Source: a virus | Virus record (IMG/VR): IMGVR_UViG_3300047157_000229 | Location: 1-64,000 of that record | DNA length: 64,000 nucleotides | Direction: 5' to 3' (one strand) | Shown here: piece by piece, positions 15,657 to 32,273 of the stretch | Layout of the letters: the number at the start of each line of letters is the position of its first letter | Numbering within the stretch: position 1 is the stretch's first letter | The notes under the pieces: generated by a model | The model's input: only the letters and a program-made list of their open reading frames with translations | Database searches by the model: none | What the model was told of the DNA's origin: nothing | Made by a program: the position numbers and the translations under genes

Positions 15657-15893
15657 ATGAACGAAACACCCAAGAGAAGAGGACGGCCCAAAGGCTCATC
15701 ATCATTTGTAAAGATGAATCTAAAGCATTTGGTTAGTCAGTTAGGTAAAAATGCCAATATCATGGTATCTAAGAAGCACCTCGACCAATTAGAGGAGCTT
15801 GATATGTTTGAATACCCCATCGATGAGGCAGCTAAGCCCCCCAAGGAGCCTGAAGAGAAGATTCAGTTCTCTATTAACACCTTCAACGACTGA
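15657..15893 (+). CDS. Small AT-hook-containing protein
   Basis: KRRGRPKGS; TTGCAT-16-TAGAAT promoter 8 nt before ATG 15657. Confidence 0.7.
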   Translation: MNETPKRRGRPKGSSSFVKMNLKHLVSQLGKNANIMVSKKHLDQLEELDMFEYPIDEAAKPPKEPEEKIQFSINTFND

Positions 15894-15897
15894 TCTT

Positions 15898-16815
15898 ATG
15901 ACTAAAAGTGAAATGTTCGAAGGTTTAATCGGTCAGGAGACAATCAAAACTCGTTTAGAGTTTTATACTCAGGCCCAGAAAGCTACAGGAACTCTCCCTT
16001 TTCTTTTGTTCAATGGTGCGAAGGGGCTTGGTAAGACAGAATTTGCAAAATCATTTGCGAAGTCTCTGGGTAAGCCATGTATAGAGATTAATTGTTCCAC
16101 GATCAGGAATGCTGAGCAGTTCTTCGATCAGGTTTTTATCCCTGCTATCCTAGACAGAGAGATAACAGTTCTTTTGGATGAGGCCCATGCCCTACCTAAA
16201 GATTTAGAAAATGCTTTTCTTACTATCTTCAATGTCGAGGATGCTAAGACTAAGAGGTTTGAATTTGGGGAATCTAGCTTTTTGTTTGATTTCTCTAAGC
16301 AGACATTCTTATTTGCCACTACTGAACTGGATAAATTGTTTCCTCCTTTTAAGGATCGTCTCACCCAGCTAGACTTCGAACCGTATGATGGTGTCGAGCT
16401 TGGTGCTATCATCCAAAAGAAACTTGATTGGTTATCATTCGAAAAAGGTTTAATCAATAAGGTTTCTCAGACTGTGAGGGGCAATGCTAGATCTGCAGTT
16501 AAAAGAGCTTTGGAGATCAAGGCATATGCAGAAGTCCACAACAAAGCCTCATTCAATAAAAAGGATTGGAGTAAGTTGTGTGGTCTACTGGGTATCATGC
16601 CATTTGGTATCAATGCTACCGAACTCCAGGTTATGAGAATCCTCAAGGATCGAGGAGCTTGCACCTTACAAATGCTCTGCGCTGTAACTGGGATGTCAAG
16701 GACTGCTTTACAGAAAGAGGCAGAGATCCACCTACTCAAGAATGGGTTCATGAAGATCGATGGTAAAAGAGAGATCACTGGTAAAGGTGTAAAAGCATTA
16801 GAAAGAATAGGTTAA
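15898..16815 (+). CDS. ruvB: RuvB-like AAA+ Holliday junction helicase
   Basis: LIGQE, GAKGLGKT, LLDEAH, FATT, DRL, RGNAR, C-terminal winged-helix-like region (REITGKG). Confidence 0.8.
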   Translation: MTKSEMFEGLIGQETIKTRLEFYTQAQKATGTLPFLLFNGAKGLGKTEFAKSFAKSLGKPCIEINCSTIRNAEQFFDQVFIPAILDREITVLLDEAHALPKDLENAFLTIFNVEDAKTKRFEFGESSFLFDFSKQTFLFATTELDKLFPPFKDRLTQLDFEPYDGVELGAIIQKKLDWLSFEKGLINKVSQTVRGNARSAVKRALEIKAYAEVHNKASFNKKDWSKLCGLLGIMPFGINATELQVMRILKDRGACTLQMLCAVTGMSRTALQKEAEIHLLKNGFMKIDGKREITGKGVKALERIG

Positions 16816-18120: not shown

Positions 18121-18466
18121 TCATTTGTAATTACCAAACACTCTCCATCGCCATACGTTTGTATACATACTATATATAGATTACCATAGGGGAGAATATA
18201 AAAGAAATCATTGTAGGTATCAGGAAAACTTAGATTTGAGAAAATTACCAGCTCCTACGCCTTTTTAATTATTTAAATACATTTTTTAATCATTTAAAAT
18301 ACTTATGAACGGATTTGACATCTTTATGACAATCGTATTATTCTTTTTGTTGCTTTATAGTGCGCTTAAGAACGGTGGTAGGACCAGTCATCGTGATGAG
18401 GAGATCGACGATTATTGGTCTGACGGTTAGCCCCGCCAATAAAAACAAATAAATAAAAGAAAAGCT

Positions 18467-18696
18467 AGGTCGTGATATAAGCCGCAAATAAACAAATAGG
18501 CGATTAGCCGCAGGTCAAGAGAAAAGCCCCAAATAAACACAGGTCAACCGAAACATTCTAAATAAGCGATTAGCCGCGATTTTTTCCTTGACTCCCACCG
18601 AAGGTGGGAGTAGAACTATAGCGTAAGATACAAATAAGGCAGGTCGTGATATAGACCCCAAATAACCCAGATCTAAATAAACCCCAATAAATAACC
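18467..18696 (+). repeat. Cluster of AG(G/A)(T/A)C-N13/14-(C/T)AAATA direct repeats
   Basis: Starts at 18467, 18512, 18541, 18612, 18641, plus a degenerate copy at 18669. Confidence 0.7.
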
Positions 18697-18751: not shown

Positions 18752-18828
18752 GTAAGTCACTGATTAGTAAGGAGTTACAGGCCAGCTGCGGCCCGTGGGC
18801 CGTAACTCGCTGATAGTCAACGAGTTAC
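18752..18828. repeat. 77-bp double-palindrome element R1
   Basis: GTAAGTCACTGATTAGTAAGGAGTTAC-23bp-GTAACTCGCTGATAGTCAACGAGTTAC. Confidence 0.95.
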
Positions 18829-18835
18829 GAGGTTT

Positions 18836-19012
18836 TTATTTAATGTATTCTTTTACAGAGAGACAGTTAAACTCCATTGCCCTTTGATCGGTAGGATCTC
18901 CAGCCTCTCCAACCTCAACCAAGTCGATAGCCTCAGCCTCCGAAGAGGCTTCAACTTCAAACTGCAAGCGGTTCACTTCCTCCATTATAACCAAGTAGTT
19001 TTTAATCTTCAT
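18836..19012 (-). CDS. Hypothetical early protein
   Basis: FEVEASSEAEA motif; start reassigned. Confidence 0.6.
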   Translation of the reverse strand: MKIKNYLVIMEEVNRLQFEVEASSEAEAIDLVEVGEAGDPTDQRAMEFNCLSVKEYIK

Positions 19013-19448
19013 CTGGCAATGGCTCCTTTCCATAGTCGAGGTAATGCATATGTTGCTTGGCATACTGGTAAACCTTAGTCATTGCTTCCTTAACCTCTTC
19101 TCTTTCTTGATAAGCTTTATCCCAAGCCTCATCCCCAAGAGGGTAGTAATCCCTTTGATGGAAGTCCGTATCATAAAGGAGTTTAATCTGCGCTTGGCTT
19201 ACAGCGTCAAACAATTCGTTGTATTGTCTGCGTAGACTGTCCTCATCTGATCCATTCATGTGGATGCATGGCATTGTGTATTTTTCAATCATAGTCTCAC
19301 CCTTTAATCCATCAATGAATTTTGTGGCTTGATCAAGTGTTGTCAACAGGGTGCCGTCTCCGTTGTAGATTTGTCCTAGGTCATGAGTCTCAATGTAAGA
19401 GTGGAGGAGAGCCTCAAGTAGTTTCTTTGTGCTTATTTCTGTATTCAT
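19002..19448 (-). CDS. Hypothetical early protein
   Basis: 148-aa ORF. Confidence 0.7.
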   Translation of the reverse strand: MNTEISTKKLLEALLHSYIETHDLGQIYNGDGTLLTTLDQATKFIDGLKGETMIEKYTMPCIHMNGSDEDSLRRQYNELFDAVSQAQIKLLYDTDFHQRDYYPLGDEAWDKAYQEREEVKEAMTKVYQYAKQHMHYLDYGKEPLPDED

Positions 19449-19451
19449 AAT

Positions 19452-19628
19452 TTAACTCTTTTTCTTTTCTATTCTCGAAAGGAATACACTGCCATGCACC
19501 TCTTCAAAAGTGAAAGCTGTTACGTCTTCATTCTTCGCTACTTCATTGCAGAAGTCGATAAGCAAGTCATAAGCTTGCTCTTCGTTTTCAACGTCGAGGA
19601 TGTCCTCGAAGGTTACTTTGATTCTCAT
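19452..19628 (-). CDS. Hypothetical early protein (58 aa)
   Basis: MRIKVTFEDILDVENEEQAY..., read from sequence. Confidence 0.6.
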   Translation of the reverse strand: MRIKVTFEDILDVENEEQAYDLLIDFCNEVAKNEDVTAFTFEEVHGSVFLSRIEKKKS

Positions 19629-19735
19629 TTAAATCCTTTCTTTTACTTGTTCAATGACTAAGTTTATAATTAGGGTGCCAAGTTGGGAATTCTACTTTTG
19701 GGGCCAATTCTGTATACCCTAGCTCTGTGAAATGT

Positions 19736-19897
19736 TCATGCAATGTAAACTGCTCCATGCAAGCTCACTTCAAAAAAAACTTTTTTCTTTTCGTCAGTAT
19801 ATTCAAAGCAACAATCTGCTCTCCCCGTCTCACACTTAGTTGCTCTAAATGTTTTAGGGAATACTCCTGTCAATTTAATTGTTTTTGGTTCGTTCAT
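19736..19897 (-). CDS. Hypothetical early protein (3' end possibly frameshifted)
   Basis: ORF track, start reassigned. Confidence 0.45.
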   Translation of the reverse strand: MNEPKTIKLTGVFPKTFRATKCETGRADCCFEYTDEKKKVFFEVSLHGAVYIA

Positions 19898-20138
19898 CTC
19901 TTGCTTGTTGTATTTTTTTCTTTCTGTCGTTTCTGTCATGGAACCATGCGGAACCATATCTAATGTTTCTTGATTTAAAGAATTCATCGCAAGCTTCGCT
20001 CACTGTGCGAGCAATGTTTGCGGGTAAGACATCATACATCCCAAAGTTTCCTTGCGAGGATTGCTTAATTATCTCTTTCTTTTCAACCGCTTTGCGGAGA
20101 AACTCATCTTTGAGGGCGTGGTAATCTTTTGATTTCAT
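19875..20138 (-). CDS. Hypothetical early protein
   Basis: ORF track, start reassigned. Confidence 0.6.
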   Translation of the reverse strand: MKSKDYHALKDEFLRKAVEKKEIIKQSSQGNFGMYDVLPANIARTVSEACDEFFKSRNIRYGSAWFHDRNDRKKKIQQARDERTKNN

Positions 20139-20199
20139 CTTATTCTGTAAGTTATTAGGCAGACTAAGCATAAACAAAAAGTGATTATGAATTCTATGC

Positions 20200-20925
20200 T
20201 CATTTCGGCTCCACAACAAAACCCGTTTCGTCTTTTTTAGCAAGACCTTTCTCAACTAATCCAACGATCACACCTTTAGGATCTTTAAAGCGCAGATCAC
20301 TTTCATCTCCATCTATCACTTTATAGCCTAGGTAAGTTTTAGGAAGTGAACCACGGAAGACGACGGCGACGTTCCCACCTAACTCAAGGATTGTTTTCAT
20401 TTTGTTATCACTAGTTGCTTCACTGCGAGAAAAGGTGAGGTGATAGTTGTCGGGCATTTTGCCATCAAGCCAAGCTCTCATCCTGTAAAACCCTTTGGTG
20501 TAATCGTAGAAACTCACATTTGGGAATTCCTCCATAACATTCAAAGAGCAGATAGGTGGCTTTTCTGTTCTGCCCTTTCGGATATTCTCCCAAGGAATGT
20601 CGCTTGTGAGATTAAGACGGAAGCAGGGAATCATTTGTTTTTTTCCTGCGCTAATGATTGCCTTGGCGATCTCCGTTCTAAGATCCGACATAAAACCGAA
20701 GTTATCCTTAAAGAATCTTTTAGTTTTATTGATTCTAGAAGTTTGCACGTTTGACATACAACCGCGCCCCGCAGTATCTAAACAAGCGGCGCGACAACCC
20801 GCGCTTGCCCATTGGCAGACATTGAATCCTGATTTATTAGAGGGGGAAAGGTGGAGACCGAAAGTGCGATATCCTAGAACCTCTCCCTTTAGTGTTTTGG
20901 CGTTGCCTTGATTTAGTAGTTTCAT
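20200..20925 (-). CDS. GP88-family protein
   Basis: NVCQWASAGCRAACL...RLNLTSDIPWE...FYDYTK...NYHLTFS...DGDESDLRF. Confidence 0.8.
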   Translation of the reverse strand: MKLLNQGNAKTLKGEVLGYRTFGLHLSPSNKSGFNVCQWASAGCRAACLDTAGRGCMSNVQTSRINKTKRFFKDNFGFMSDLRTEIAKAIISAGKKQMIPCFRLNLTSDIPWENIRKGRTEKPPICSLNVMEEFPNVSFYDYTKGFYRMRAWLDGKMPDNYHLTFSRSEATSDNKMKTILELGGNVAVVFRGSLPKTYLGYKVIDGDESDLRFKDPKGVIVGLVEKGLAKKDETGFVVEPK

Positions 20926-20941
20926 AATTGTTTTTTTTGTT

Positions 20942-21292
20942 TTACCACCAGCAAGTGTAAAAAACCTGATCGCCTTCTGAGATAGCTTCTCTAGCTTTTG
21001 CCACAAACTCTAGATCATAATCTTGGCGCGTTGCGTCGTGACTAGTATCACTCCCAAAGAAAAAGCCTTGGGTTTGCGGTAATGTTTGGTGCTTAATGCA
21101 AGTCCAGAGTTGGTCTAGATCTTCGGTGGTGATTTCAAGATCTTGGCAATTAAGATCACTTTCTGATTTGCCAGTTTTAATGGCCCAGAGTTTTTCCATC
21201 CAACCTTGCAAAGCATTATGCTTGCGCCAGGAAGAAAGCTCAGTTGACTCACCATTAGAGTCCCTTCGGTGTGCATATTGGTCTAATCCCAT
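20942..21292 (-). CDS. Hypothetical phage protein
   Basis: MGLDQYA...WRKHNALQGWM...LPQTQGFFFG...YTCWW. Confidence 0.8.
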   Translation of the reverse strand: MGLDQYAHRRDSNGESTELSSWRKHNALQGWMEKLWAIKTGKSESDLNCQDLEITTEDLDQLWTCIKHQTLPQTQGFFFGSDTSHDATRQDYDLEFVAKAREAISEGDQVFYTCWW

Positions 21293-21301
21293 AACAAAAG
21301 T

Positions 21302-21329
21302 ATTTTGACAGGTTTGGGTTTGGGTGCAA
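21302..21329 (-). promoter_or_regulatory. Early sigma70-type promoter with AT-rich UP element
   Basis: TTGCAC-16-CAAAAT, 9 nt before ATG 21292. Confidence 0.65.
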
Positions 21330-21384
21330 GTGTATTTTAAATGTTTTTTTATTATTTTTTAATGCTTGACACGAAAAAACCTCT

Positions 21385-21461
21385 CTAAGTCGTTGATTGA
21401 TAGGGAGTTACAGGGCGGCGGCGGCGGCTCGCCTGTAAGTCATTGATACACAGCGAGTTAC
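21385..21461. repeat. 77-bp double-palindrome element R2
   Basis: CTAAGTCGTTGATTGATAGGGAGTTAC-23bp-GTAAGTCATTGATACACAGCGAGTTAC. Confidence 0.95.
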
Positions 21462-21466
21462 AAAGG

Positions 21467-21503
21467 AAAAAGCCCCGCCCCCAACATGAAAGGGACGAGG
21501 CTT
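21467..21503 (-). terminator. Intrinsic terminator
   Basis: GC hairpin with T run on the minus strand, abutting R2. Confidence 0.65.
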
Positions 21504-21523
21504 TGCTTATGTCTACCAAAAAG

Positions 21524-21637
21524 CTAGAGAGCCATCCTGATAAGTTGGATGAGGCCGAAAGCGGTGACTAGTCCAGAAAGTATAATCGCACAAGTAAAAA
21601 CGACATTTTCGGTAAAGGTTCTGTCTTGATCTTTCAT
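21524..21637 (-). CDS. Small membrane peptide (37 aa)
   Basis: MKDQDRTFTENVVFTCAIILSGLVTAFGLIQLIRMAL. Confidence 0.5.
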   Translation of the reverse strand: MKDQDRTFTENVVFTCAIILSGLVTAFGLIQLIRMAL

Positions 21638-21671
21638 GATAAGGTTGCCCCCCTTTCGGGGGGCGTTATGG

Positions 21672-22436
21672 CTATGCAGGTAAAACTAGAGCTGACTCCT
21701 TATCCTCTTGAGAGATAATCTCTGGAGTGTGATTGGCGAACTTGTCAAAGATAGATTGCATACGCATAGTGCGGTCTGCGAGCTTGGTAAGATCGCCACC
21801 CTTGAGATTCTCAGTGATGGAATTGTAGAGGGTCCAGAGAGAACCGCCCTTGAATTCCTCATGGCGAGGATTGCGGAACTCCTCGACGGCCTTGTAGATG
21901 TCGCGAGCAGGGAAAGCCTTGGCATCAACCAAGTCAACAATCATAGAGGCGGCATCACGGACCTCGGTTTGCTGGTAAGCACCAATGCGCTTACCCATAT
22001 CCTGCCAGTGGGAAGTGACACGGGCAACGGCTGAAGCCAGAACACGGGGAAGGTCACCCAAAATGTGGGTGGTGTGACGGCGAGCAAGCTTGACATCCGA
22101 AGAGAAGCAAAGGTTTTCGCAAACCATCATCTGGTTACCTGCAGCAATAGAAGCGGCGAAAGACTTGTCGTGAGCATTGCGAAGGCCCAAGACAATGCGG
22201 CGATCATCGCCAGTGACATCCTGACCCTTGAGGGCGAAACCCCCGAAGTAACGCTGGCCACCACGGGCAAGAGCGTGTTCCTCTTCAGTCACCTCAAGAC
22301 CTGCGCGGTCAAGAGTTTCACGGGTCATCTTCACCAAGTGGTGATGCGGGATTGGAGTATGGGAAGCTGTCCCCTCTGGGGTTTGAACTCCAGCAAGTTG
22401 CTCCGAATCGACTTTGTTTTTTGCGTAGATAAGCAT
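21672..22436 (-). CDS. DUF932-family protein
   Basis: HTPIPH...LRNAHDKSF...VCENLCF...RRHT...LWTLYNSITE. Confidence 0.8.
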   Translation of the reverse strand: MLIYAKNKVDSEQLAGVQTPEGTASHTPIPHHHLVKMTRETLDRAGLEVTEEEHALARGGQRYFGGFALKGQDVTGDDRRIVLGLRNAHDKSFAASIAAGNQMMVCENLCFSSDVKLARRHTTHILGDLPRVLASAVARVTSHWQDMGKRIGAYQQTEVRDAASMIVDLVDAKAFPARDIYKAVEEFRNPRHEEFKGGSLWTLYNSITENLKGGDLTKLADRTMRMQSIFDKFANHTPEIISQEDKESALVLPA

Positions 22437-22481
22437 AATAGTAGTTAGGTTAAAAACGAGAGACTATCTCTCGACAGGGGA

Positions 22482-22509
22482 ATTATGACAGAAAACAGTT
22501 TGTGTGCAA
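22482..22509 (-). promoter_or_regulatory. Early sigma70-type promoter
   Basis: TTGCAC-16-CATAAT with A-rich UP element. Confidence 0.7.
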
Positions 22510-22616
22510 TACCTTTTAAAGTTTTTTTGTCTTTTTTTTGTAGGTCAGGACATTTCGCAACAAATAGGAATAAAAAGCTTGACTTGCCCCAATCCACCGA
22601 GTGAGGAAAAACCTCT

Positions 22617-22693
22617 GTAAGTCACTGATACTCAAGGAGTTACAGGGCGGGGGCGGCGGCTGGCCCGTAACTCGCTGATAGTCAACGACTTAG
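22617..22693. repeat. 77-bp double-palindrome element R3
   Basis: GTAAGTCACTGATACTCAAGGAGTTAC-23bp-GTAACTCGCTGATAGTCAACGACTTAG. Confidence 0.95.
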
Positions 22694-22705
22694 AAAGGTT
22701 TTATT

Positions 22706-22736
22706 AAAAAGAAACCCGCCCCCTTTCGGGGACGGG
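22706..22736 (-). terminator. Intrinsic terminator
   Basis: CCCGTCCCC-GAAA-GGGGGCGGG-TTTCTTTTT on the minus strand. Confidence 0.8.
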
Positions 22737-22750
22737 CTGAATTTAGTGCT

Positions 22751-23761
22751 TTACTTATTATACAGTTTATACATATCAAAGAAAAGTCTCTGCCAGCAGT
22801 TAGCTTTTCTTTTAGAGACTCCTTTAATATCTCTGGATTGATATTGAACAGTAGCGGATTCGAATTCAAACCATGTGTTTAGTTTGTCTTTTCGTGGGTG
22901 ATTTCCACCTATACCCCAAACACCATTTTTGATAGCGTTTTTAACTGTATCAATATCATACGATCCTCCTAAACCCCTATCCTCTATCGAGTCTAATAGG
23001 AATTGAGGTAATCCAGACCACATTTGCATTCCGAACTTTTTTTCATCTCCAATCTCATCTCGGAAAACATAATCAATTATATTTACAGTGTCTTCCATAA
23101 CTTTCTTAGTGATGGCGGCTTTCTCTTTTGGCACTAACAATCTGTTTTTTAACATACTGTTAATAGCGGCTAAGATCTGTCCGTGGAGTGCTGCAACATT
23201 AGAGCCAAGATCAAGAGCTTTCTCCTTTGTTGGATTCAATGGGTTGTAGCCAAGCTTTTTGAAAAGTTTGATTATACCATGGATGTTATCAGGATCACTT
23301 TCGTTAAGCCTAGTGATCGCTTCAGCATGACCCCAGAACCTAGCATTTACTTCCCATTGACTTTTTGTCTTTGGGTCATTGGCTCGTAAGCACCTTGTGA
23401 TTGATGCCAGTGTATTAACTACCCTACAATCAATAACCTGATGAGGAGAGGCGCAAATTCTATGCTGACCATCAGTGATTTGAGGATAGTATTTACCTTT
23501 ATATTCGTGCATGTAAAGGTTAGGCAAATCGCAATCATCATCATCCCAATTCTCATGGATGTTTCTGATTTGTTTTTTGTTCAATGCCCTTTGGAAGCCA
23601 TTGTCAATTCCAATGTTTTCCTTGTTTATTTGCACTATATTATAGATCCCTACCTTTTTGACCTTTGGAGCCTTGGATAGAGGTTTAGCCATGAGGTTAT
23701 ACTCTGGCACTGCATTGTGGGAGTTCTTATAGAACTCCATCTTTTTTTTCTTCGTGTTCAT
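22751..23761 (-). CDS. DGQHR / ParB-Srx-like domain protein
   Basis: FQRAL...IHENWD...ITDGQHR. Confidence 0.75.
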   Translation of the reverse strand: MNTKKKKMEFYKNSHNAVPEYNLMAKPLSKAPKVKKVGIYNIVQINKENIGIDNGFQRALNKKQIRNIHENWDDDDCDLPNLYMHEYKGKYYPQITDGQHRICASPHQVIDCRVVNTLASITRCLRANDPKTKSQWEVNARFWGHAEAITRLNESDPDNIHGIIKLFKKLGYNPLNPTKEKALDLGSNVAALHGQILAAINSMLKNRLLVPKEKAAITKKVMEDTVNIIDYVFRDEIGDEKKFGMQMWSGLPQFLLDSIEDRGLGGSYDIDTVKNAIKNGVWGIGGNHPRKDKLNTWFEFESATVQYQSRDIKGVSKRKANCWQRLFFDMYKLYNK

Positions 23762-23827
23762 AAGTTATCTTATTTTCTACTTAATGGTTAAATGCCCCCG
23801 AATCAGTTGTTCATCAGCGACATCCAC

Positions 23828-23855
23828 AGTATAACTAGATTTGATTCCTGTGCAA
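23828..23855 (-). promoter_or_regulatory. Early sigma70-type promoter
   Basis: TTGCAC-16-TATACT. Confidence 0.7.
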
Positions 23856-24004
23856 CACTTTTCTCCTATTTTTTTGATTTTTTTTTATTTTAAAATGCAG
23901 CTCAGCATATTTTGCGACAAATAGCGTAGGTCAGGATATTTTAGGCCAAATAGCGCAATAAAAGGCTTGACTTGCCGCGATTTATCAGGTCATAAAAAAA
24001 CCCC

Positions 24005-24081
24005 GTAACTCACTGCTAATCAATGAGTTACAGGGCAGGGGCGGCGCGTGGCCCGTAACTCGCTGATACACAACGAGTTAC
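24005..24081. repeat. 77-bp double-palindrome element R4
   Basis: GTAACTCACTGCTAATCAATGAGTTAC-23bp-GTAACTCGCTGATACACAACGAGTTAC. Confidence 0.95.
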
Positions 24082-24344
24082 GAGGATTTTGGTCTTGCCA
24101 AAAAGTAATACCCAGCATCCCCGTCGGCTGCGGCTGCTCCCAGTTGGAATGCTCAACTTCGGCCACCCACTCTTGAGCGCTGGCATAGGCTGTTCGCCAA
24201 ACCCCCATAGCCAACTCCCCGTCTTCAAACATTTCTGGGATCACCCACCCCCGATAAGACCTTGGGCAAGTCATGCTCTCCTGCCCTTTGAGTCCTGCCT
24301 GATAAGCGAAGTCATATAACTGATGTACGTGTTAGTGTAGCCAT
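24020..24344 (-). CDS. Hypothetical early protein (one apparent indel near 24325; reads into R4)
   Basis: TTGCCA-17-TACTAT-6-ATG at 24344; QLYDFAYQAGLKGQES joins the ORF 24020-24274. Confidence 0.6.
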
Positions 24345-24442
24345 GAGGGGATAGTAGCCGAAGAATTAGTTTTTGGCAATAACTATTTTGATTTATTTTT
24401 TTATTTATTTCCTAACAAAAGGCTTTAAGAAGTTTGCACCCT

Positions 24443-24519
24443 GTAAGTCACTACTAATCAGTTAGTTACAGGGCGGGGGCGGGGCGCGGCCCGTAACTCG
24501 TTGATACTCAGTGACTTAG
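24443..24519. repeat. 77-bp double-palindrome element R5
   Basis: GTAAGTCACTACTAATCAGTTAGTTAC-23bp-GTAACTCGTTGATACTCAGTGACTTAG. Confidence 0.95.
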
Positions 24520-24711
24520 AGCGTTTTTTGAAGTCTTCTGGCAATGGGTCGCGAGTGCTGGCCTCTGCGAGTATCGCCAAGCGCTGCATGGCGCGGTCAT
24601 ACTCTTCGCGCTCTGCGGCTGTCAAGTTTATTTTTTGATTTGGCATCTTTTTTTTTACATGTGAGAACCCGCCCCCCACCACAGGGGACGGGCAATACAC
24701 ACAACACACAA

Positions 24712-25134
24712 TTACAAAAAGAATCTGAACATGGCTACCCAACGGCTTCTGACATTTGAGATCCCAGCGACTTGGAGGGTGCGAAACTTGCGTTCCCCTC
24801 CGTCATCGAGGTCACGGGTAGCAGCTACAAGGTAGCGCTTATTCATAGCGGAGAACGCATCTGTCTCTATGCTTTCTACTAGGAAGTTTCTGATTCCACT
24901 CACCTTGACGGTGGAGGCTCCAGAGTTTACATAAGTCACAATGCTATTCGTGAGAAGCTGCTCCAACTCAGAAGGGGGCATCTTGTAGAAGTTGCGGAGC
25001 TTCTGCTTGTCAGACAGGTTATCCCAGAAGATAACGAAAGCGGAGATCAGAGCAATGATGCCGATGATGGCAAAAGCTACTGGTGTTAGGTTTGAGGAGA
25101 GGACTTGTTGGATGGTGTCTAGTGTTGTTTGCAT
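24712..25134 (-). CDS. Membrane-anchored protein with WYL/SH3-like C-terminus
   Basis: TM helix; ...KFRTLQVAGI; TTGACC-17-TAAAAT-6-ATG. Confidence 0.7.
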   Translation of the reverse strand: MQTTLDTIQQVLSSNLTPVAFAIIGIIALISAFVIFWDNLSDKQKLRNFYKMPPSELEQLLTNSIVTYVNSGASTVKVSGIRNFLVESIETDAFSAMNKRYLVAATRDLDDGGERKFRTLQVAGISNVRSRWVAMFRFFL

Positions 25135-25278
25135 AACGGGATTTTAGTTGAATAGGTAGTTGAGGTCAATGCTTTTTTGATTTCTTTTTCGAGATCTTCG
25201 GAGTGGTCGAGCATCTCCAAGTTGCCAGCGATGACAAGCGTGAAGATAACTCCTGCGATGGTGAGTATAGTGTTCATA

Positions 25279-25437
25279 TTACTTAGAGGCTTTTAGGATT
25301 TGTTTTTTCTTTTCAGCAATTAACTTTTTTGCATGGAGGGTGCAAAGACCGTAGGACTTGATTTTGATCAGACCTTCTTCCATGCCTTTTAGTTCTGCTT
25401 TATACATTCTTACTGTCCAGTTGTTGGTGTCGCTCAT
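25279..25437 (-). CDS. Hypothetical early protein (52 aa)
   Basis: TTGCAC-17-TAAAAT-6-ATG; MSDTNNWTVRMYK... Confidence 0.65.
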   Translation of the reverse strand: MSDTNNWTVRMYKAELKGMEEGLIKIKSYGLCTLHAKKLIAEKKKQILKASK

Positions 25438-25495
25438 GTGGGAATTTTAGTTGAATTGTGGGTTGGGTGCAAGCACTAATCGCATCTTTTTTAAT

Positions 25496-25750
25496 TTATT
25501 TTTCGACGACTGGGCTGGGCTGGAAACGACGCATACCGACGCGATCAATACATCTGAAGCGGAGAGTCTTGAAAACTTGCTTGTTACCAGTCTCGCTATT
25601 GTGGCTCTTGTCCACGACCTTGCACACTGCGAACCCGTCACCAATGCGGTCAATGCTTTTGAGGATATACATACGAGCATTTCCATTATTAGAAGTATAG
25701 TAAACAAACTGTTTCCCTGTCAGGCTAGTGATGTTGTCTTGGTTGATCAT
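25496..25750 (-). CDS. Small WYL/SH3-like protein
   Basis: FVYY...ARMY...FKTLRFRCIDRV; TAAAAT-6-ATG. Confidence 0.65.
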   Translation of the reverse strand: MINQDNITSLTGKQFVYYTSNNGNARMYILKSIDRIGDGFAVCKVVDKSHNSETGNKQVFKTLRFRCIDRVGMRRFQPSPVVEK

Positions 25751-25867
25751 GGGGATATTTTACTCTAATCGGCAGAGAATTAAAAGCTTTTTCTGCATAT
25801 ATTTAATCTTTTTTTTTATTTAAAAAGGCTTGACATAGGCTAGCTATAGAGTAGGGAGAAAAGCCTC

Positions 25868-25944
25868 GTAAGTCGTTGATACTCAATGAGTTACAGGGCG
25901 GGGCGGGGGCGTGGCCCGTAACTCCCTATCGCTCAGTGAGTTAG
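25868..25944. repeat. 77-bp double-palindrome element R6
   Basis: GTAAGTCGTTGATACTCAATGAGTTAC-23bp-GTAACTCCCTATCGCTCAGTGAGTTAG. Confidence 0.95.
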
Positions 25945-26130
25945 AGCGTTTTTTATTTAAATGTTTTTATTTACTTTTTTTACCCTAAAAGGCTTGACAC
26001 TCTCACCGTGTCTGATTTAAAATGGTGGCATATTTCTGCGAGGGCTATGCCAGACCCACGATCACTCCTTATTTAACGTCTTACGGATCGCTTAACCGTG
26101 TTTATACTCACTTGACGAAAGTTTATTGAT

Positions 26131-26286
26131 CTAGGTTTTTGGCTTTTCTTCTTGGTCATAAAGATTGTCTATGTCTCCCAAGTATCCATCACACGCATGG
26201 TCTTCATCTTTGGGGCAATCCCCATTACAATATAAACATTTAATTTGTTTAAAGGTTCCTGATAAGTCTATTTTATCTTCGTTCAT
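26131..26286 (-). CDS. Small Cys-containing protein (51 aa)
   Basis: CLYCNGDCPKDEDHACDGY, read from sequence. Confidence 0.6.
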   Translation of the reverse strand: MNEDKIDLSGTFKQIKCLYCNGDCPKDEDHACDGYLGDIDNLYDQEEKPKT

Positions 26287-26297
26287 ATTATTTTTAT

Positions 26298-26522
26298 TTA
26301 CTTGCCGTAGATCCAGCGAAGCTCATCGCTCCACTCCTTGACCATCTCAGCCTCATGACCCTTTGGGTTCTTGCAAGCTGCACCGATCCACTTTCTGATC
26401 ATGCGCTGGAGCTTTTTCATCCTGCGCCATTCCATCCAATGCACACCAATGGCGAAAGGGTAAGTGAGAATGAGAAGGGCTTTGCCCTTGGCGTCTTGGT
26501 CTTTGAAGTTGTGTAGGTTCAT
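26298..26522 (-). CDS. Hypothetical early protein
   Basis: ORF track. Confidence 0.65.
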   Translation of the reverse strand: MNLHNFKDQDAKGKALLILTYPFAIGVHWMEWRRMKKLQRMIRKWIGAACKNPKGHEAEMVKEWSDELRWIYGK

Positions 26523-26789
26523 AGTGTTAGTGTGTTAGTTTAGTGTAATGCTTTTACTTTGTTATCTCTGATTTGCCGAAGCGTCGTTTAGGTCTCCTTG
26601 GCAATGTGAGGGTCAGTTGCCCTGAGAGCCAGATAGCCTCGGAAACTTTATAGTCTAATTGCAAGGGCGGCTTTCCGCTGCCTGCATAAAGTGAGGATCA
26701 TATTGAGGTTGGCTCTCTCTTGGGCGTGGTTCAAATGCTGTGTCAGTCATGGTAGTATTCTAGTATAGATTTGGGGCTAATGAAAAGGT

Positions 26790-26960
26790 TTATTTTGTTT
26801 TTCTTGGAGCGGGGGAAGCCCAAGGGCAGTCACTAAAGAAAGGGAATGGCTCTCGCTTGGCTAACTCCTCAGAATTCTTTCTGAACTGAGCTTTGCGCCG
26901 ATCAATGAGATCTTGAACTTCTTGTGAGCGAGTGGCGGGGTAAGGCTTGTTTTGCTTCAT
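26790..26960 (-). CDS. Hypothetical early protein
   Basis: TATAAT-6-ATG at 26960. Confidence 0.65.
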   Translation of the reverse strand: MKQNKPYPATRSQEVQDLIDRRKAQFRKNSEELAKREPFPFFSDCPWASPAPRKTK

Positions 26961-27017
26961 GTGAGAATTATACATTAAAAAGTGATTTAAAAAAGCTTTT
27001 TCTGCTATTATTTTAAT

Positions 27018-27239
27018 TTATTTACTTACCCAACCGAACTTAAAAAAGTCAAAGTGACCATTGTCATCTCCATACTTCAGATATTCCTTGGCGATCTCTG
27101 AACCATACTTGTCTTCGATGTCTTTATACATACTACCAGCAAAAACCTCATCCATGATCTGAAAGAATAAACTCTTGTTCATGCCTCCACCATCTTCGTT
27201 GGCGTAGTTAAAAGGCTGCATCTCTTCTTGTTGCTTCAT
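27018..27239 (-). CDS. Hypothetical early protein (first gene of the leftward block)
   Basis: TAAAAT-6-ATG. Confidence 0.7.
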   Translation of the reverse strand: MKQQEEMQPFNYANEDGGGMNKSLFFQIMDEVFAGSMYKDIEDKYGSEIAKEYLKYGDDNGHFDFFKFGWVSK

Positions 27240-28398: not shown

Positions 28399-29115
28399 AT
28401 GGGAGTTAAGAAACTGTCTAATATTCAGTTGGAACCTCACAACTTTTTTTCAATAAAGTTTAAAGAGAGGAAATTTAAATTTACCGCAAATCAACGCAAA
28501 TTTCTAGATACACTACTAGATCCAGAGGTAAAAATCATGTTTGTGTCTGGACCAGCTGGTTCTAGTAAAACTTACATGTCTTTATATGGTTGTCTTAGAT
28601 TAATGTCTGAAGATAGAGATAAGGATCTATTATACATTAGAAGTATTGTAGAAAGCGCTGATAAAGGTCTAGGTAGCCTTCCTGGAGATATGTCTGAGAA
28701 ATTCAACCCTTTTACGTTGCCTCTCTATGACAAACTAGAAGAAATCATACATGAGGGCGATACAGCCTACCTGAAACAAAAGGAACGTGTCAATGCTATA
28801 CCTATAAACTTTTTAAGGGGGGCTAACTGGGAAAACAAACTAATTGTAGCTGACGAAGCGCAAAACTTTACATTTAAAGAGTTGACCACTTTGATTACTC
28901 GTATTGGTGAAAATACTAAGTTAATTATCTGCGGAGACTTTATGCAAAGTGATATTGATGGTAAGACAGGCTTTAAAAACATGGTTGATATATTTTCAGA
29001 CGAAGATTCTAAAGCTAATGGTATTGATACCTTTCAATTTACCAACAAAGATATTGTTAGAAGCAAAATTTTAAAATTCATCATTTCTAAGTTAGAAAAT
29101 TGGAAGAAAGTGTAA
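28399..29115 (+). CDS. phoH: PhoH-family ATPase
   Basis: GPAGSSKT, LGSLPG, FLRG, DEAQN, TRIG, GDFMQSD, DIVRS. Confidence 0.95.
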   Translation: MGVKKLSNIQLEPHNFFSIKFKERKFKFTANQRKFLDTLLDPEVKIMFVSGPAGSSKTYMSLYGCLRLMSEDRDKDLLYIRSIVESADKGLGSLPGDMSEKFNPFTLPLYDKLEEIIHEGDTAYLKQKERVNAIPINFLRGANWENKLIVADEAQNFTFKELTTLITRIGENTKLIICGDFMQSDIDGKTGFKNMVDIFSDEDSKANGIDTFQFTNKDIVRSKILKFIISKLENWKKV

Positions 29116-29234: not shown

Positions 29235-29579
29235 ATGGCTCACATATTTTGTCAAAGTTGTGGAAGTAAAATTTCTTACGCTAACGCAAAGCCCAACTTC
29301 TGTACGAAGTGCGGCCAGCCTCTGAATTCTAGAGCTTCTACTGTTTCAACGAATACTTCTGTTACAGAGACAATAAAATCTTCAGTTATCTCGTCTGACG
29401 AGACAGATGCTGAATTTGTCCCTGAGATTACCGATTTTCAAGTAGATTTTGAAGTCTCTAATATTTCTAGTAGAACACTAGGGTCATTAATAGGTGAGCC
29501 AACTCCTAACACAACGAGTAGGAGGCGCGAACCTAAATCTGTTAATGACTTTATTGATGAAAAGAAAAAAGGGAAGTAA
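29235..29579 (+). CDS. Zinc-ribbon protein
   Basis: CQSCG...FCTKCG. Confidence 0.75.
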   Translation: MAHIFCQSCGSKISYANAKPNFCTKCGQPLNSRASTVSTNTSVTETIKSSVISSDETDAEFVPEITDFQVDFEVSNISSRTLGSLIGEPTPNTTSRRREPKSVNDFIDEKKKGK

Positions 29580-30231
29580 TTATACATATGAAGACTTCTC
29601 CGAAGTAATCGATTTAGCGATAAAGAAACAGCAGTATAAATGGCGGCTGAATGCTGTTAGGTGGTTTGACTTTGAAGATGTAGAACAAATCATAAAAGTT
29701 CACATTGCTAAGAAGTGGGACATGTGGGATCAAGAGCGACCTCTTGAACCGTGGATAGGTAGGATTATATCTAACCAGATAAGAAACCTAGTTAGAAATC
29801 ACTACGGCAACTATGTAAATCCTTGCCTGAATTATCAAGAGCCAGATCATGACTCATCTACCTGTCCGATTTGTCAGAAGTGGGAAAAGTCTAAGAAAGC
29901 GGGGTTAGAATTGAAAATACCGCTTTCTACGGAGGATTTCATAAAAGAAGTAACAAATAAAGAATATTTAGACTTCGACTTCTCTTCATCACTTGAAAAG
30001 CTTAATTTCGAGATGCAATCCCGCCTGAAGGATAATCATTACATAGCTTACAGGATGTTGTATTTTGAAAGTAGTAGCGAAGAAGATGTAGCTAAATTTA
30101 TGGGATATAAGATCTCCCCGCAAAAAAGAAAGCTTGGTTACAGGCAAGTAAAGAATCTTAAGAAGAAATTCCTACAAGTAGCTATAGAGATACTAAAGGA
30201 GCAAGATATTATAGGTGATGGAGCTGAATAA
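29557..30231 (+). CDS. Phage sigma-factor-like protein
   Basis: Region-2-like DFEDVEQ...PWIGRIISNQIRN; Cys insert; region-4-like HTH (EEDVAKFMG). Confidence 0.6.
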   Translation: MKRKKGSNYTYEDFSEVIDLAIKKQQYKWRLNAVRWFDFEDVEQIIKVHIAKKWDMWDQERPLEPWIGRIISNQIRNLVRNHYGNYVNPCLNYQEPDHDSSTCPICQKWEKSKKAGLELKIPLSTEDFIKEVTNKEYLDFDFSSSLEKLNFEMQSRLKDNHYIAYRMLYFESSSEEDVAKFMGYKISPQKRKLGYRQVKNLKKKFLQVAIEILKEQDIIGDGAE

Positions 30232-31267
30232 AGATCAAAAAGAGTTTTTAAGAGTTAATTCTCAAGATATGCCAGATCTTATTGATTTGACAAAAAAATG
30301 CTTTGGCGATGAATCTTTGGATGGCAGATCTAAGGAAGGCCGCGCTGTTCGCAAGTTCTTAGTAGAGAACTCTATAAAATTCAAAACAACAAGTAGAATA
30401 CCTGCTGAAGTTATAAATTTAACAAAAGAGCAAGGAGAATTCATTCTGCAGCAAGCGGAAGAGGGATTGTCTTCATTGGAGATAGCTAAGATAGTTTTCC
30501 CGTCTAGAAATGTAAAACCTCTAAGTTCTGAACAACGTGTAGTCTTAGAGAAAATTAGAGAGGTAAACCCAGATATTTTACCATCTCAAGATTCGGGAGC
30601 GTTAAATTCTTACATTTCTCCAAAATCTCCATCACGAATCATAAAAAAAGTAAATGATGCTACAGGACTAACATTAAACGAGCAAAAACTCAACAGACAA
30701 AAACAAATTTGTATAGAGAAGCTTAAAGTAAACCTTTCTAACTCTAGATTTTTAAAGATTATTAATAATTTTTTAAACGAAGAAGATAGAGTTTTGTTTG
30801 AACATGAATTTGTTAGATTGACATGGGATAAACCAGATCTAACGGCTGATGAATTGAATCTTTATTTAAACGTCTGTAAAGAGGTTATAAACTTAGAAGT
30901 TATAAGCGCTCACCTAAATAAATTGAACAGTATGTTCGATGACGCTGATGAGCAACAGGAAATGTCTATCCGTTTAGCAGAGATTATAAAAACTAAGAGT
31001 AGCGAGTATCATCAGTGCGAAACCCGCATTGAGAACCTCACAAAGAAGCTTCAGGGCGACAGGGGAGAGCGCATGAAGAAAATGCAGAAGGAGAACGCAT
31101 CTTTTCTATCTATCGTCCAATTATTCCAAGAACAGGAAGAAAGAGAGACAATGATACGAATAGCTGAGATGCAAAAAGAATCAATCAAAGAAGAAGCTGA
31201 AAGGCTAGAGGGTATGGCGGAATGGAAAGCTAGAGTTCTAGGAATAAGTCAAGAAGATGCAATTTAA
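30215..31267 (+). CDS. Hypothetical coiled-coil protein (terminase small subunit candidate by position)
   Basis: HTH-like GLSSLEIAK; two genes upstream of TerL. Confidence 0.45.
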   Translation: MMELNKDQKEFLRVNSQDMPDLIDLTKKCFGDESLDGRSKEGRAVRKFLVENSIKFKTTSRIPAEVINLTKEQGEFILQQAEEGLSSLEIAKIVFPSRNVKPLSSEQRVVLEKIREVNPDILPSQDSGALNSYISPKSPSRIIKKVNDATGLTLNEQKLNRQKQICIEKLKVNLSNSRFLKIINNFLNEEDRVLFEHEFVRLTWDKPDLTADELNLYLNVCKEVINLEVISAHLNKLNSMFDDADEQQEMSIRLAEIIKTKSSEYHQCETRIENLTKKLQGDRGERMKKMQKENASFLSIVQLFQEQEERETMIRIAEMQKESIKEEAERLEGMAEWKARVLGISQEDAI

Positions 31268-32273
31268 ATGTCAGGAATGCGGCAAGGAGTTTAAAAGCCG
31301 AAGAAGCTTACATACTCATATAAAAGTCCATGATTTATTTGTGGGGGACTATTATGTGAAATATTACCCACGTTTTGATAAGTTAACTAATCAACCGATA
31401 GAGTATAAAAATTACGATCAGTATTTCGCTACTGACTTCATCAATATATCTAATATGAAAAAGTGGTGCGATCAGGCTCCGCGAGAAGAGGTTAGAGAAT
31501 TTATAAAAAAGTCTTTAAAAGAAAAGCTAGGAGCCAAGGGCATTCAAGCAGGTCCACCGTCCACTTACCTACTAACGGGTGGTCTTCCCGATATTGACAT
31601 CTGTAAACAGATGTTCGGCAGTTATCGTGAAACCTGTCAGCATATCGATATGCTCCCCATGCTATCAGCGTCTTTACCAAAAGATTTCCAAAAAGATTAT
31701 AGTGATACACCTATACTAATTGACACTAGGGAACAACAGCCATTATCTTTTAATAATTCTGACTCATTGAAATTGGATGTGGGTGACTATGCCGTGGGCG
31801 GTGATCTATATGACTATACATTTGTGGATAGGAAGTCTTACCAGGATTTTTGCTCTACTATTACAAACGGTTATTCGCGTTTTATCAAAGAGTTAGAAAG
31901 ATGTAGATCTATTGGTTGTTTTCTTTATATAGTTACAGAAACAGCTTTTGATGATATGTGGGCCACTAATAAAAAAGGCTTCAAGAAATTTAAATTAGAT
32001 TATGTTTATCATCAGATGCGTTCTATACAATCTGAGTATACTGATTGCTGTCAATTTGTGTTTAGTGGCTCTAGGGAGAAAAGCGAGGAACTTATACCCA
32101 AAATCCTTGTTTTAGGAAAGAAGCTATGGAAAGTAGACCTTCAATATTTTTGGGACAAAGAAATTAAAAAAGATGGCTTGGGAAACAGGAAAACAGAAAC
32201 TCCACAGAGATTACAAGGATATAAACAAACTCATTCTAGAAAAAGAGGGGTATTTAGAAGAAACGGAAGCTAA
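31257..32273 (+). CDS. C2H2 zinc finger + ERCC4/XPF-type nuclease
   Basis: CQECGKEF...LHTHIKVH; IDTREQ, GDY, VDRKS. Confidence 0.8.
   Translation: MQFKCQECGKEFKSRRSLHTHIKVHDLFVGDYYVKYYPRFDKLTNQPIEYKNYDQYFATDFINISNMKKWCDQAPREEVREFIKKSLKEKLGAKGIQAGPPSTYLLTGGLPDIDICKQMFGSYRETCQHIDMLPMLSASLPKDFQKDYSDTPILIDTREQQPLSFNNSDSLKLDVGDYAVGGDLYDYTFVDRKSYQDFCSTITNGYSRFIKELERCRSIGCFLYIVTETAFDDMWATNKKGFKKFKLDYVYHQMRSIQSEYTDCCQFVFSGSREKSEELIPKILVLGKKLWKVDLQYFWDKEIKKDGLGNRKTETPQRLQGYKQTHSRKRGVFRRNGS

Follow-up and report, generated by a model that had tools for sequence, protein, structure and literature searches.

Paired palindromes around a GC-rich stem-loop form a widespread intergenic element in the early region of uncultured phages

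Introduction

In T4-type phages, promoter-early stem-loops (PeSLs) are repeated composites in which an AT-rich stretch and a sigma-70-like promoter occur together with a polyG-polyC stem-loop, and they both terminate transcription and mediate the exchange of gene cassettes (PMC2839356, PMC4122927). Here, we describe an element that resembles PeSLs in part and lies in the early region of an uncultured phage, represented by the first 64,000 nucleotides of the IMG/VR virus record IMGVR_UViG_3300047157_000229 (this whole stretch is referred to below as the window). Six copies of the element, each consisting of two imperfect palindromes around a GC-rich spacer, are found between positions 18752 and 25944, and we propose with moderate confidence that these units are boundary elements in which paired docking sites for proteins of the integration host factor (IHF)/HU (DNABII) type surround a GC stem-loop and would insulate early-gene cassettes. 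Besides PeSLs, the closest described elements are the RIB/RIP elements (BIME-1) of Escherichia coli, in which the order is repetitive extragenic palindrome (REP), IHF site, REP.

PeSLs and the present units are both repeated intergenic motifs of ~100 bp in variable early regions, flanked by small genes of unknown function. Both contain an AT-rich stretch, a TTGACA-type promoter, and a G-run/C-run stem-loop, and both are places of homologous cassette exchange among relatives. Indeed, the combination by which PeSLs are recognized, a sigma-70-like promoter with AT-rich sequence upstream and a G/C stem-loop between small early genes, was found here. However, the present units also contain two 27-bp palindromes of the protein-site type at fixed spacing, which PeSLs lack, and they are carried by a long-tailed phage, as indicated by an open reading frame (ORF) of 2333 amino acids (aa) for a tape measure protein, rather than by a T4-type myovirus.

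RIB/RIP elements are likewise repeated in extragenic DNA at the 3' ends of transcription units, and they, too, contain both IHF-consensus sites and GC-rich palindromic stem-loops, but the order is inside out (site, GC dyad, site in the present units), and the present element is borne by a phage rather than by the host chromosome. Its sites also carry a mirror-symmetric double consensus, and no REP-associated transposase is known for it. Classical IHF sites (lambda attP H', oriC, the pSC101 and R6K origins, and the ihfA and ihfB promoters) have the same WATCAR-N4-TTR half-site as the palindromes described here, and solitary copies of the palindrome share their settings, namely, origin iterons, an integrase-tRNA junction, and an IHF-like gene. 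The classical sites lack symmetry, having the consensus in one half and an A-tract on the other side, whereas the present sites have the consensus on both halves, additional conserved bases (T6 and C7, G21 and A22), and rigid pairing.

Dispersed repressor operators, such as the CIRs of phiC31, the stoperators of mycobacteriophage L5, and the C1 sites of P1, also place many copies of one protein site in the intergenic spaces of an early region, close to terminators and promoters. Their ligand is the repressor of a temperate phage, and they are not known from unrelated bacteria, whereas the present motif is common to bacteria of several phyla, and no repressor candidate emerged among the proteins scanned. 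The injection stop region of T5, which uses DnaA boxes, is a looser parallel (10.1101/866236). A preliminary description, made from the letters of the window alone, had regarded the element as undescribed, and we likewise found no published description in the literature searched; we conclude that it is a real and widespread phage boundary element.

Results and Discussion

Anatomy of the six units

The six units start at positions 18752, 21385, 22617, 24005, 24443, and 25868, as the preliminary description had claimed, and each comprises 27 + 23 + 27 bp, i.e., two imperfect palindromes whose starts are exactly 50 bp apart and a GC-rich spacer between them. The degenerate pattern GTAASTC-N13-GASTTAS, with up to two mismatches allowed, recovered all 12 palindromes, compared with 2.2 chance matches expected in 64 kb, and a repeat search of the window placed all six units in a single six-member family. 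Only three further matches to the pattern, all weak and unpaired, were present in the 64 kb, in agreement with the claim that the element has no copies outside the region. The A-tract on the left and the T-tract on the right were each seen at five of the six units, and folding as two hairpins or as one long hairpin with a bulged A was predicted in both cases (z-scores of -3.7 to -6.6), also as claimed. In addition, unit 1 was found to be inverted relative to the other five; in relatives L001 and L004, the unit 1 spacer is G-rich on the opposite strand.

Unit 1 (18752-18828, minus strand) consists of a palindrome at 18752-18778, a spacer at 18779-18801, and a palindrome at 18802-18828, and it sits at the junction of a plus-strand gene block and a block of small minus-strand genes (18836-25750). 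The remaining units are in plus orientation. Unit 2 (21385-21461) has palindromes at 21385-21411 and 21435-21461, and unit 3 (22617-22693) has palindromes at 22617-22643 and 22667-22693 around its G-rich spacer. The palindromes of unit 4 (24005-24081), which displays a four-gamete pattern among relatives (see below), are at 24005-24031 and 24055-24081; those of unit 5 (24443-24519) are at 24443-24469 and 24493-24519, and those of unit 6 (25868-25944) are at 25868-25894 and 25918-25944.

Two small minus-strand ORFs, at 24020-24274 and 24458-24646, extend 62 nucleotides (nt) into units 4 and 5 and end alike, with a TGA at positions 16 to 18 of the left palindrome. These ends are either unit-encoded C termini or artifacts of a stop-free GC-rich stretch.

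A phage family with locus-specific spacing

When a palindrome-only pattern was run against IMG/VR, at least 120 stretches matched; the family counts given here and below rest on the matches listed. The set analyzed comprised 124 sequences (123 IMG/VR loci and the window) with a combined length of 1.02 Mb, in which 794 palindromes formed about 360 pairs, 333 of them distinct. The start-to-start spacing was 50 bp in 225 pairs, and spacings of 34, 40 to 44, 46 to 53, and 58 to 62 bp were also observed. In 41 of the 62 loci with three or more units, the spacing was identical across all units, although the spacer sequences differed. A spacer-anchored pattern matched five closely related IMG/VR contigs, and all of their units have the 50-bp spacing. 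The claim that the spacing never varies is therefore correct within this phage and its near relatives, but it does not extend to the family as a whole; an invariant geometry is not a family property, since the spacing differs between phages over a range of 34 to 62 bp.

The units are intergenic, as 332 of 363 overlap a called ORF by no more than 45 nt. In some phages, a unit follows nearly every one to three small genes, with six to fifteen copies in total. Approximately half of the element-bearing contigs carry the PhoH and sigma module of the window, which includes genes for a sigma-like protein, PhoH, and an ERCC4 nuclease, so most of the loci belong to one broad phage clade. The unit can serve as a sequence tag by which these numerous uncultured phages are recognized.

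The palindromes are conserved as half-sites and the spacer as a stem

The strong folds predicted on both strands of the units, together with the flanking A- and T-tracts, are what would be expected if the unit acted mainly as RNA, whether as a bidirectional terminator or 3'-end protector or as a hairpin RNA of ~90 nt that would start from the -38 promoter, end at the T-tract, and be antisense to the 3' ends of early mRNAs. Unit 4, read on the minus strand, qualifies as an intrinsic terminator, and of the 70 distinct units that have a promoter-like box at exactly position -38 (described below), 50 have a T-run behind them. Pairing was examined in 140 distinct units with a spacing of 50 bp, which were aligned without gaps, and was counted for three candidate structures relative to column-shuffled controls. 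For the two local hairpins, 83.3% of the cells were paired, compared with 82.3% after partner shuffling. For the long hairpin, in which the left palindrome pairs with the right one, 77.2% of the cells were paired relative to 79.1% in the shuffled controls, and all 500 of 500 shuffles gave a value at least as high. The G/C position 5/23 was never A or T, yet it was mismatched in ~47% of the units. Furthermore, no excess of G-U over A-C was detected on either strand, with the strands set by G-richness or by the promoter box. Given that the palindromes exhibit neither pairing covariation nor strand bias, they are conserved as two half-sites and not as stems.

When the spacer was treated as an 8-bp dyad, 62.1% of the cells were paired versus 53.0% after shuffling. 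Its covariation score was 0.341, compared with 0.214 for shuffled spacers and 0.15 to 0.20 for slid controls, and none of 500 shuffles reached this value; the G residues are mostly on the 5' arm of the dyad. The unit thus appears to be composed of a protein-type site, a GC stem-loop, and a second protein-type site.

Taken together, these analyses point to a protein-DNA arrangement, as suggested earlier, and not to an RNA fold as the target of selection, in that the palindromes lack pairing covariation and the length of the spacer is fixed in each phage while its sequence varies. A principal role as RNA is, in our judgment, distinctly unlikely. Although the GC spacer covaries as a stem, compensatory changes are absent from the palindromes, which account for 54 of the 77 bases, and pairing in the long hairpin is below the level of its shuffled controls. 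A hairpin would not require an apical region of strictly constant length, as is seen here, and the same palindrome is found in bacterial promoter regions and plasmid origins. Rfam covariance models gave no match at the units at E-values of up to 1, and a search for tRNA-like or known RNAs likewise found none. An R-loop or G-quadruplex in the spacer was also considered and rejected, as the G-richness is strong in the window but weak across the family (786 G versus 637 C in the direction of the promoter).

The half-sites match the IHF consensus

The half-site of the palindrome, T-A-T-C-A-A/G-N4-T-T-A, fits the sequence WATCAR-N4-TTR, which the literature confirms as the IHF consensus. Of the 18 matches to this consensus in the window, 11 fall inside the 12 palindromes, whose share of the sequence is 0.5%. 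Positions A3, A4, T10, A18, T24, and T25, which are invariant, correspond to the CAA and TT of the consensus, and the same conservation picture was obtained with a profile built from partner sites, which had been picked regardless of sequence. With the halves mirrored around a 3-bp center, the T9-T10 and A18-A19 steps lie 9 bp apart. In the IHF-DNA structure, two proline-induced kinks are separated by 9 bp.

A profile of 17 IHF-like proteins detected no HU/IHF gene in the window or in the related phage loci analyzed (best E-value, 0.05). Since a phage-encoded HU/IHF protein was not found in these sequences, the predicted binder is most likely a protein of the host. The consensus sequences of CIRCE, FNR, HAIR, dif, Ter, parS, and other operators were also compared with the palindrome, and none fitted.

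Solitary copies of the palindrome in bacterial genomes

A scan of 185,579 species genomes yielded 80 stretches. Part of these are phage-like contigs in bins of metagenome-assembled genomes (MAGs), with paired units on just one or two contigs, and the remainder are solitary copies of the palindrome. Given that terminator hairpins number in the millions, some of the solitary copies, such as perfect hairpins behind tRNA genes or those in Zixibacteria, could match the pattern by chance, and the argument below is built solely on conserved and multicopy cases.

About 11 copies were counted in one Fibrobacter genome, about 15 in one Akkermansia genome, and about 7 in one Verrucomicrobiales MAG, whereas a reversed control pattern gave 0 or 1. 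For one of the Fibrobacter copies, the distance to the start codon of a downstream IHF-alpha-like gene is 19 bp, and 10 of the 11 closest Fibrobacteraceae orthologues (L222 to L232) have a copy 34 to 64 bp upstream of this gene. The Fibrobacteraceae copies directly follow a sigma-70-type promoter of the form TTGAC-N17-TATAAT. In E. coli, ihfA and ihfB are autoregulated via sites in their own promoters. The arrangement in the Fibrobacteraceae suggests autoregulation along with a regulon of about 10 to 15 sites in Fibrobacter and Akkermansia.

Solitary copies were also located between iterons (origin repeats) and the gene for a Rep3 initiator (L189), beside an RPA initiator gene near plasmid origin repeats (L188), and between a tRNA fragment and a tyrosine integrase (L190), with further copies at the 3' ends of tRNA genes. 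An origin, an integrase-tRNA junction, and the promoter of an IHF-like gene are all classical settings of IHF sites. Association of the bacterial sites with sigma-54 promoters was weak (7 of 64 versus a background of 5.7%) and was rejected. With respect to the question raised at the outset of whether the element is identical with a known host repeat, the palindrome belongs to no host repeat family, although the motif does recur as solitary sites in many bacterial genomes. Paired units were present on contigs binned with Verrucomicrobiales, and solitary copies also occur at dispersed sites in the Verrucomicrobiales MAG and in Akkermansia (L154, L182, L188, and genome G050 for these cases); Verrucomicrobia are a lead to the host.

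A promoter-like box faces the units

In the flanks of the units, TTGAC peaks 38 bp outside the palindrome edge, with 51 cases on one side and 26 mirrored cases (77 in total). The logo of this arrangement reads T-rich, A-rich, gGC-TTGACA, N16, T-A-n-n-G-n, AAAA, C-C-T-C, palindrome. The predicted start point is thus a few bases before the palindrome, which is the same layout as at the IHF-like gene of the Fibrobacteraceae. The -38 box points against the flanking genes 58 times and with them 12 times, unlike the promoter of PeSLs, which drives the downstream cassette gene; the sense promoters are separate from it, ~100 bp away.

In the window, inward boxes on the plus strand were identified at unit 3 (22579-22607; TTGACT at -38, N17, TGAGGA), where the box points against the minus-strand genes, at unit 4 (23967-23995; TTGACT at -38, N17, TCATAA), and at unit 6 (25830-25857; TTGACA at -38, N16, TAGGGA). 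The box is truncated at units 2 and 5. At unit 2, TTGACA is just 19 bp from the palindrome edge, such that the -10 part is missing, and at unit 5 the inward promoter of relatives L002, L004, and L005 is truncated in the window copy.

The position of the box also bears on the possibility that the palindromes are operators for a different dimeric regulator, of phage or host origin and outside the IHF/HU group, which would silence the inward promoters or the early region in the manner of the dispersed operators of phiC31, P1, or L5. Consistent with such a regulator, a palindrome overlies the predicted start of a promoter-like box at a fixed distance of 38 bp, T6, C7, G21, and A22 are conserved outside the IHF consensus, and about half of the loci represent one phage clade that shares conserved unannotated proteins and the sigma-like protein. 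Nevertheless, we consider this explanation unlikely. The motif is found at 10 to 15 dispersed sites in Fibrobacter and Akkermansia, and, in unrelated phyla, at plasmid origins and at an integrase-tRNA junction, a distribution that a phage-specific repressor would not explain, and no DNA-binding candidate was detected among the conserved clusters scanned.

A second repeat, AGGTC-N13/14-CAAATA, forms tandem copies at 18462-18665, 22542-22569, and 23899-23955, which places it just upstream of inward TTGAC boxes and to the left of unit 1. It may be the site of another regulator of back-to-back promoters. The best sigma-70 match of the region (25994-26023, plus strand; TTGACA-N18-TAAAAT, 11 of 12 positions) lies to the right of unit 6 and points rightwards, with no unit downstream.

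Termination at the units

The covarying GC stem has no U-tract after it, and T-runs are common in the flanks of the units. At unit 3, the GC-hairpin terminator of a gene for a 336-aa protein (22713-22738, minus strand) is located immediately upstream of the unit in the sense direction, so the unit is not the sole terminator at that boundary. An ordinary terminator that follows a 43-aa ORF (21469-21504, minus strand) has the same position relative to unit 2. The suggestion that the units are promoter insulators is consistent with their location between terminators and promoters.

The minus-strand 43-aa ORF itself (21509-21639) has a hydrophobic C-terminal half and is situated between two ordinary terminator hairpins, directly upstream of unit 2.

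Exchange of cassettes at the units

At unit 4, a four-gamete pattern is evident among relatives: two unrelated left flanks (A and B) are combined with three right flanks (1, 2, and 3), with A1, A2, A3, B1, and B2 all being seen. None of these combinations differs from the others in the right palindrome or at the end of the spacer, which places the junction within the unit. Close relatives differ in their cassette content, and across all loci the ends of long homology blocks showed a 2.3-fold excess within 20 bp of units over the expectation from sequence length. These observations would be compatible with the units being dedicated recombination or mobility sites, attC-like or REPIN/MITE-like, that move early-gene cassettes. 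However, the 2.3-fold excess mostly vanished when intergenic DNA alone was used for comparison, with 20.5% of the intergenic end points being located at units versus 17.6% of the intergenic bases (P = 0.05, the points not being independent); in this respect, too, the units differ from PeSLs. No empty site was recovered in 680 junction queries, and no integrase, transposase, RAYT-type gene, or recombinase was identified among the proteins scanned. The core sites of tyrosine and serine recombinases are also unlike a palindrome with a 3-bp center. We therefore regard dedicated mobility as extremely improbable.

The ideas of recombination sites and of cassette shuffling in the preliminary description thus hold to the extent that a junction falls inside unit 4 and that cassette content varies among close relatives; they fail in that end points are not significantly commoner at units than in other intergenic DNA and that neither a recombinase nor empty sites were found. 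Given these negative results, exchange at the units appears to be ordinary homologous recombination and not the product of a dedicated shuffling system. Mobile repeats of the REP/BIME, REPIN, or MITE kind were rejected on the absence of an empty site and of a transposase among the scanned proteins. An integron attC site was rejected as well, as the core sites RYYYAAC...GTTRRRY are absent and no integrase was found in the region, and so was a CRISPR mini-array, as the two palindromes of a unit are not identical to each other and a conserved GC dyad takes the place of a unique "spacer".

A model for insulation of early-gene cassettes

We infer binding, bending, and insulation from the observed anatomy of the units, their family, the lack of pairing constraint on the palindromes, the consensus match, the contexts of the copies, and the promoter box. 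In the boundary model that we favor with moderate confidence, each palindrome would be a high-affinity, mirror-symmetric site for a dimeric DNA-bending protein of the IHF/HU (DNABII) type, and two dimers at the phage-specific spacing would give the DNA between neighboring early transcription units a defined fold. Together with its A- and T-tracts, the unit as a whole could stop transcription arriving from either side, and in many copies the TTGACA box at -38 would direct transcription toward the unit, opposite to the genes, from a start point covered by the protein site. In combination, these features would insulate small early-gene cassettes from each other, and the conserved patches of ~80 bp could double as substrates for ordinary homologous cassette exchange.

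Several observations weigh against this model. Conservation at positions T6, C7, G21, and A22 equals that at the IHF positions, yet these four fall within the N4 of the consensus, so the predicted binder may have a specificity that is narrower than, or different from, that of E. coli IHF. The curated IHF cutoffs are not reached by the IHF-like paralogues of Fibrobacter, Akkermansia, and a Flavobacteriaceae MAG, although those of Fibrobacter and Akkermansia score best against IHF models, and the link between the palindrome and an IHF-like gene was seen only in the Fibrobacteraceae and not in Akkermansia or the Verrucomicrobiales MAG. Spacings of 34, 42, 50, and 58 bp do not maintain a single helical phase. 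The inward -10 element (TAnnGn) lacks the usual final T, unlike that of the sense promoters, which makes the activity of the inward promoter uncertain. Lastly, several minus-strand genes have a simple terminator of their own next to a unit, so termination may not be the main job of the unit.

A function in DNA entry, replication, or packaging, with the units as T5-like injection pause sites or as multiple origins, would be in line with their location in the early region of a long-tailed phage and with the bacterial copies of the palindrome beside plasmid origin repeats. In T5, too, the stop region is rich in repeats and palindromes, to which a host protein binds (10.1101/866236). We nonetheless judge such a function to be very improbable, since six to fifteen copies, one after nearly every one to three small genes, fit the boundaries of transcription units better than they fit a single stop or origin, and neither DnaA boxes nor iterons were seen with the units in the window. 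A role as N4-type hairpin promoters, to be used by a virion RNA polymerase, was rejected, because the 2333-aa ORF encodes the tape measure protein instead.

It is possible, though doubtful, that the boundary model applies in a wider form, in which an uncultured aquatic phage clade combines docking pairs for a host IHF-like protein with a stem-loop and an inward promoter to make a transcriptional and topological insulator, and the same motif marks an unstudied IHF-like regulon in Fibrobacter and Verrucomicrobia. The inward promoter may then act as a supercoil source for each gene cassette. If this were true, the units would represent a class of phage regulatory element with no described counterpart. 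If the boundary model itself is right, these phages would rely on a nucleoid protein of the host to shape and separate the genes that they express first. The model would also predict an IHF-like binding motif and autoregulation in Fibrobacterota and Verrucomicrobiota, where these are unstudied. The 77-bp unit offers a defined system for studying the insulation of neighboring promoters by a stem-loop together with paired DNA bends, and the idea of cassette shuffling is tempered in that exchange at the units is no more frequent than elsewhere between genes.

Genes and minor features around the units

The phage in the window has no close cultured relative: its terminase (32173-34038) is only ~25% identical to that of any cultured phage, and cultured-phage DNA contained no match to the region, to a unit, or to a perfect palindrome. 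The window also encodes a ribonucleotide reductase, a RuvB-like ATPase (15799-16815), PhoH (28399-29115), an ERCC4 nuclease with a C2H2 zinc finger (31257-32273), and a 245-aa protein with a weak match to sigma-70 region 2 (29494-30231). The genes between the units include those for a GP88-family protein and a DUF932 protein; they have sigma-70-type promoters of their own, and several have their own simple terminators. For the small ORFs at 26131-27239, the coding strand is ambiguous. In the 5' leader of the DUF932 gene, between promoter and start codon, a terminator-like hairpin followed by a T-run (22457-22473, minus strand) could be an attenuator of this gene.

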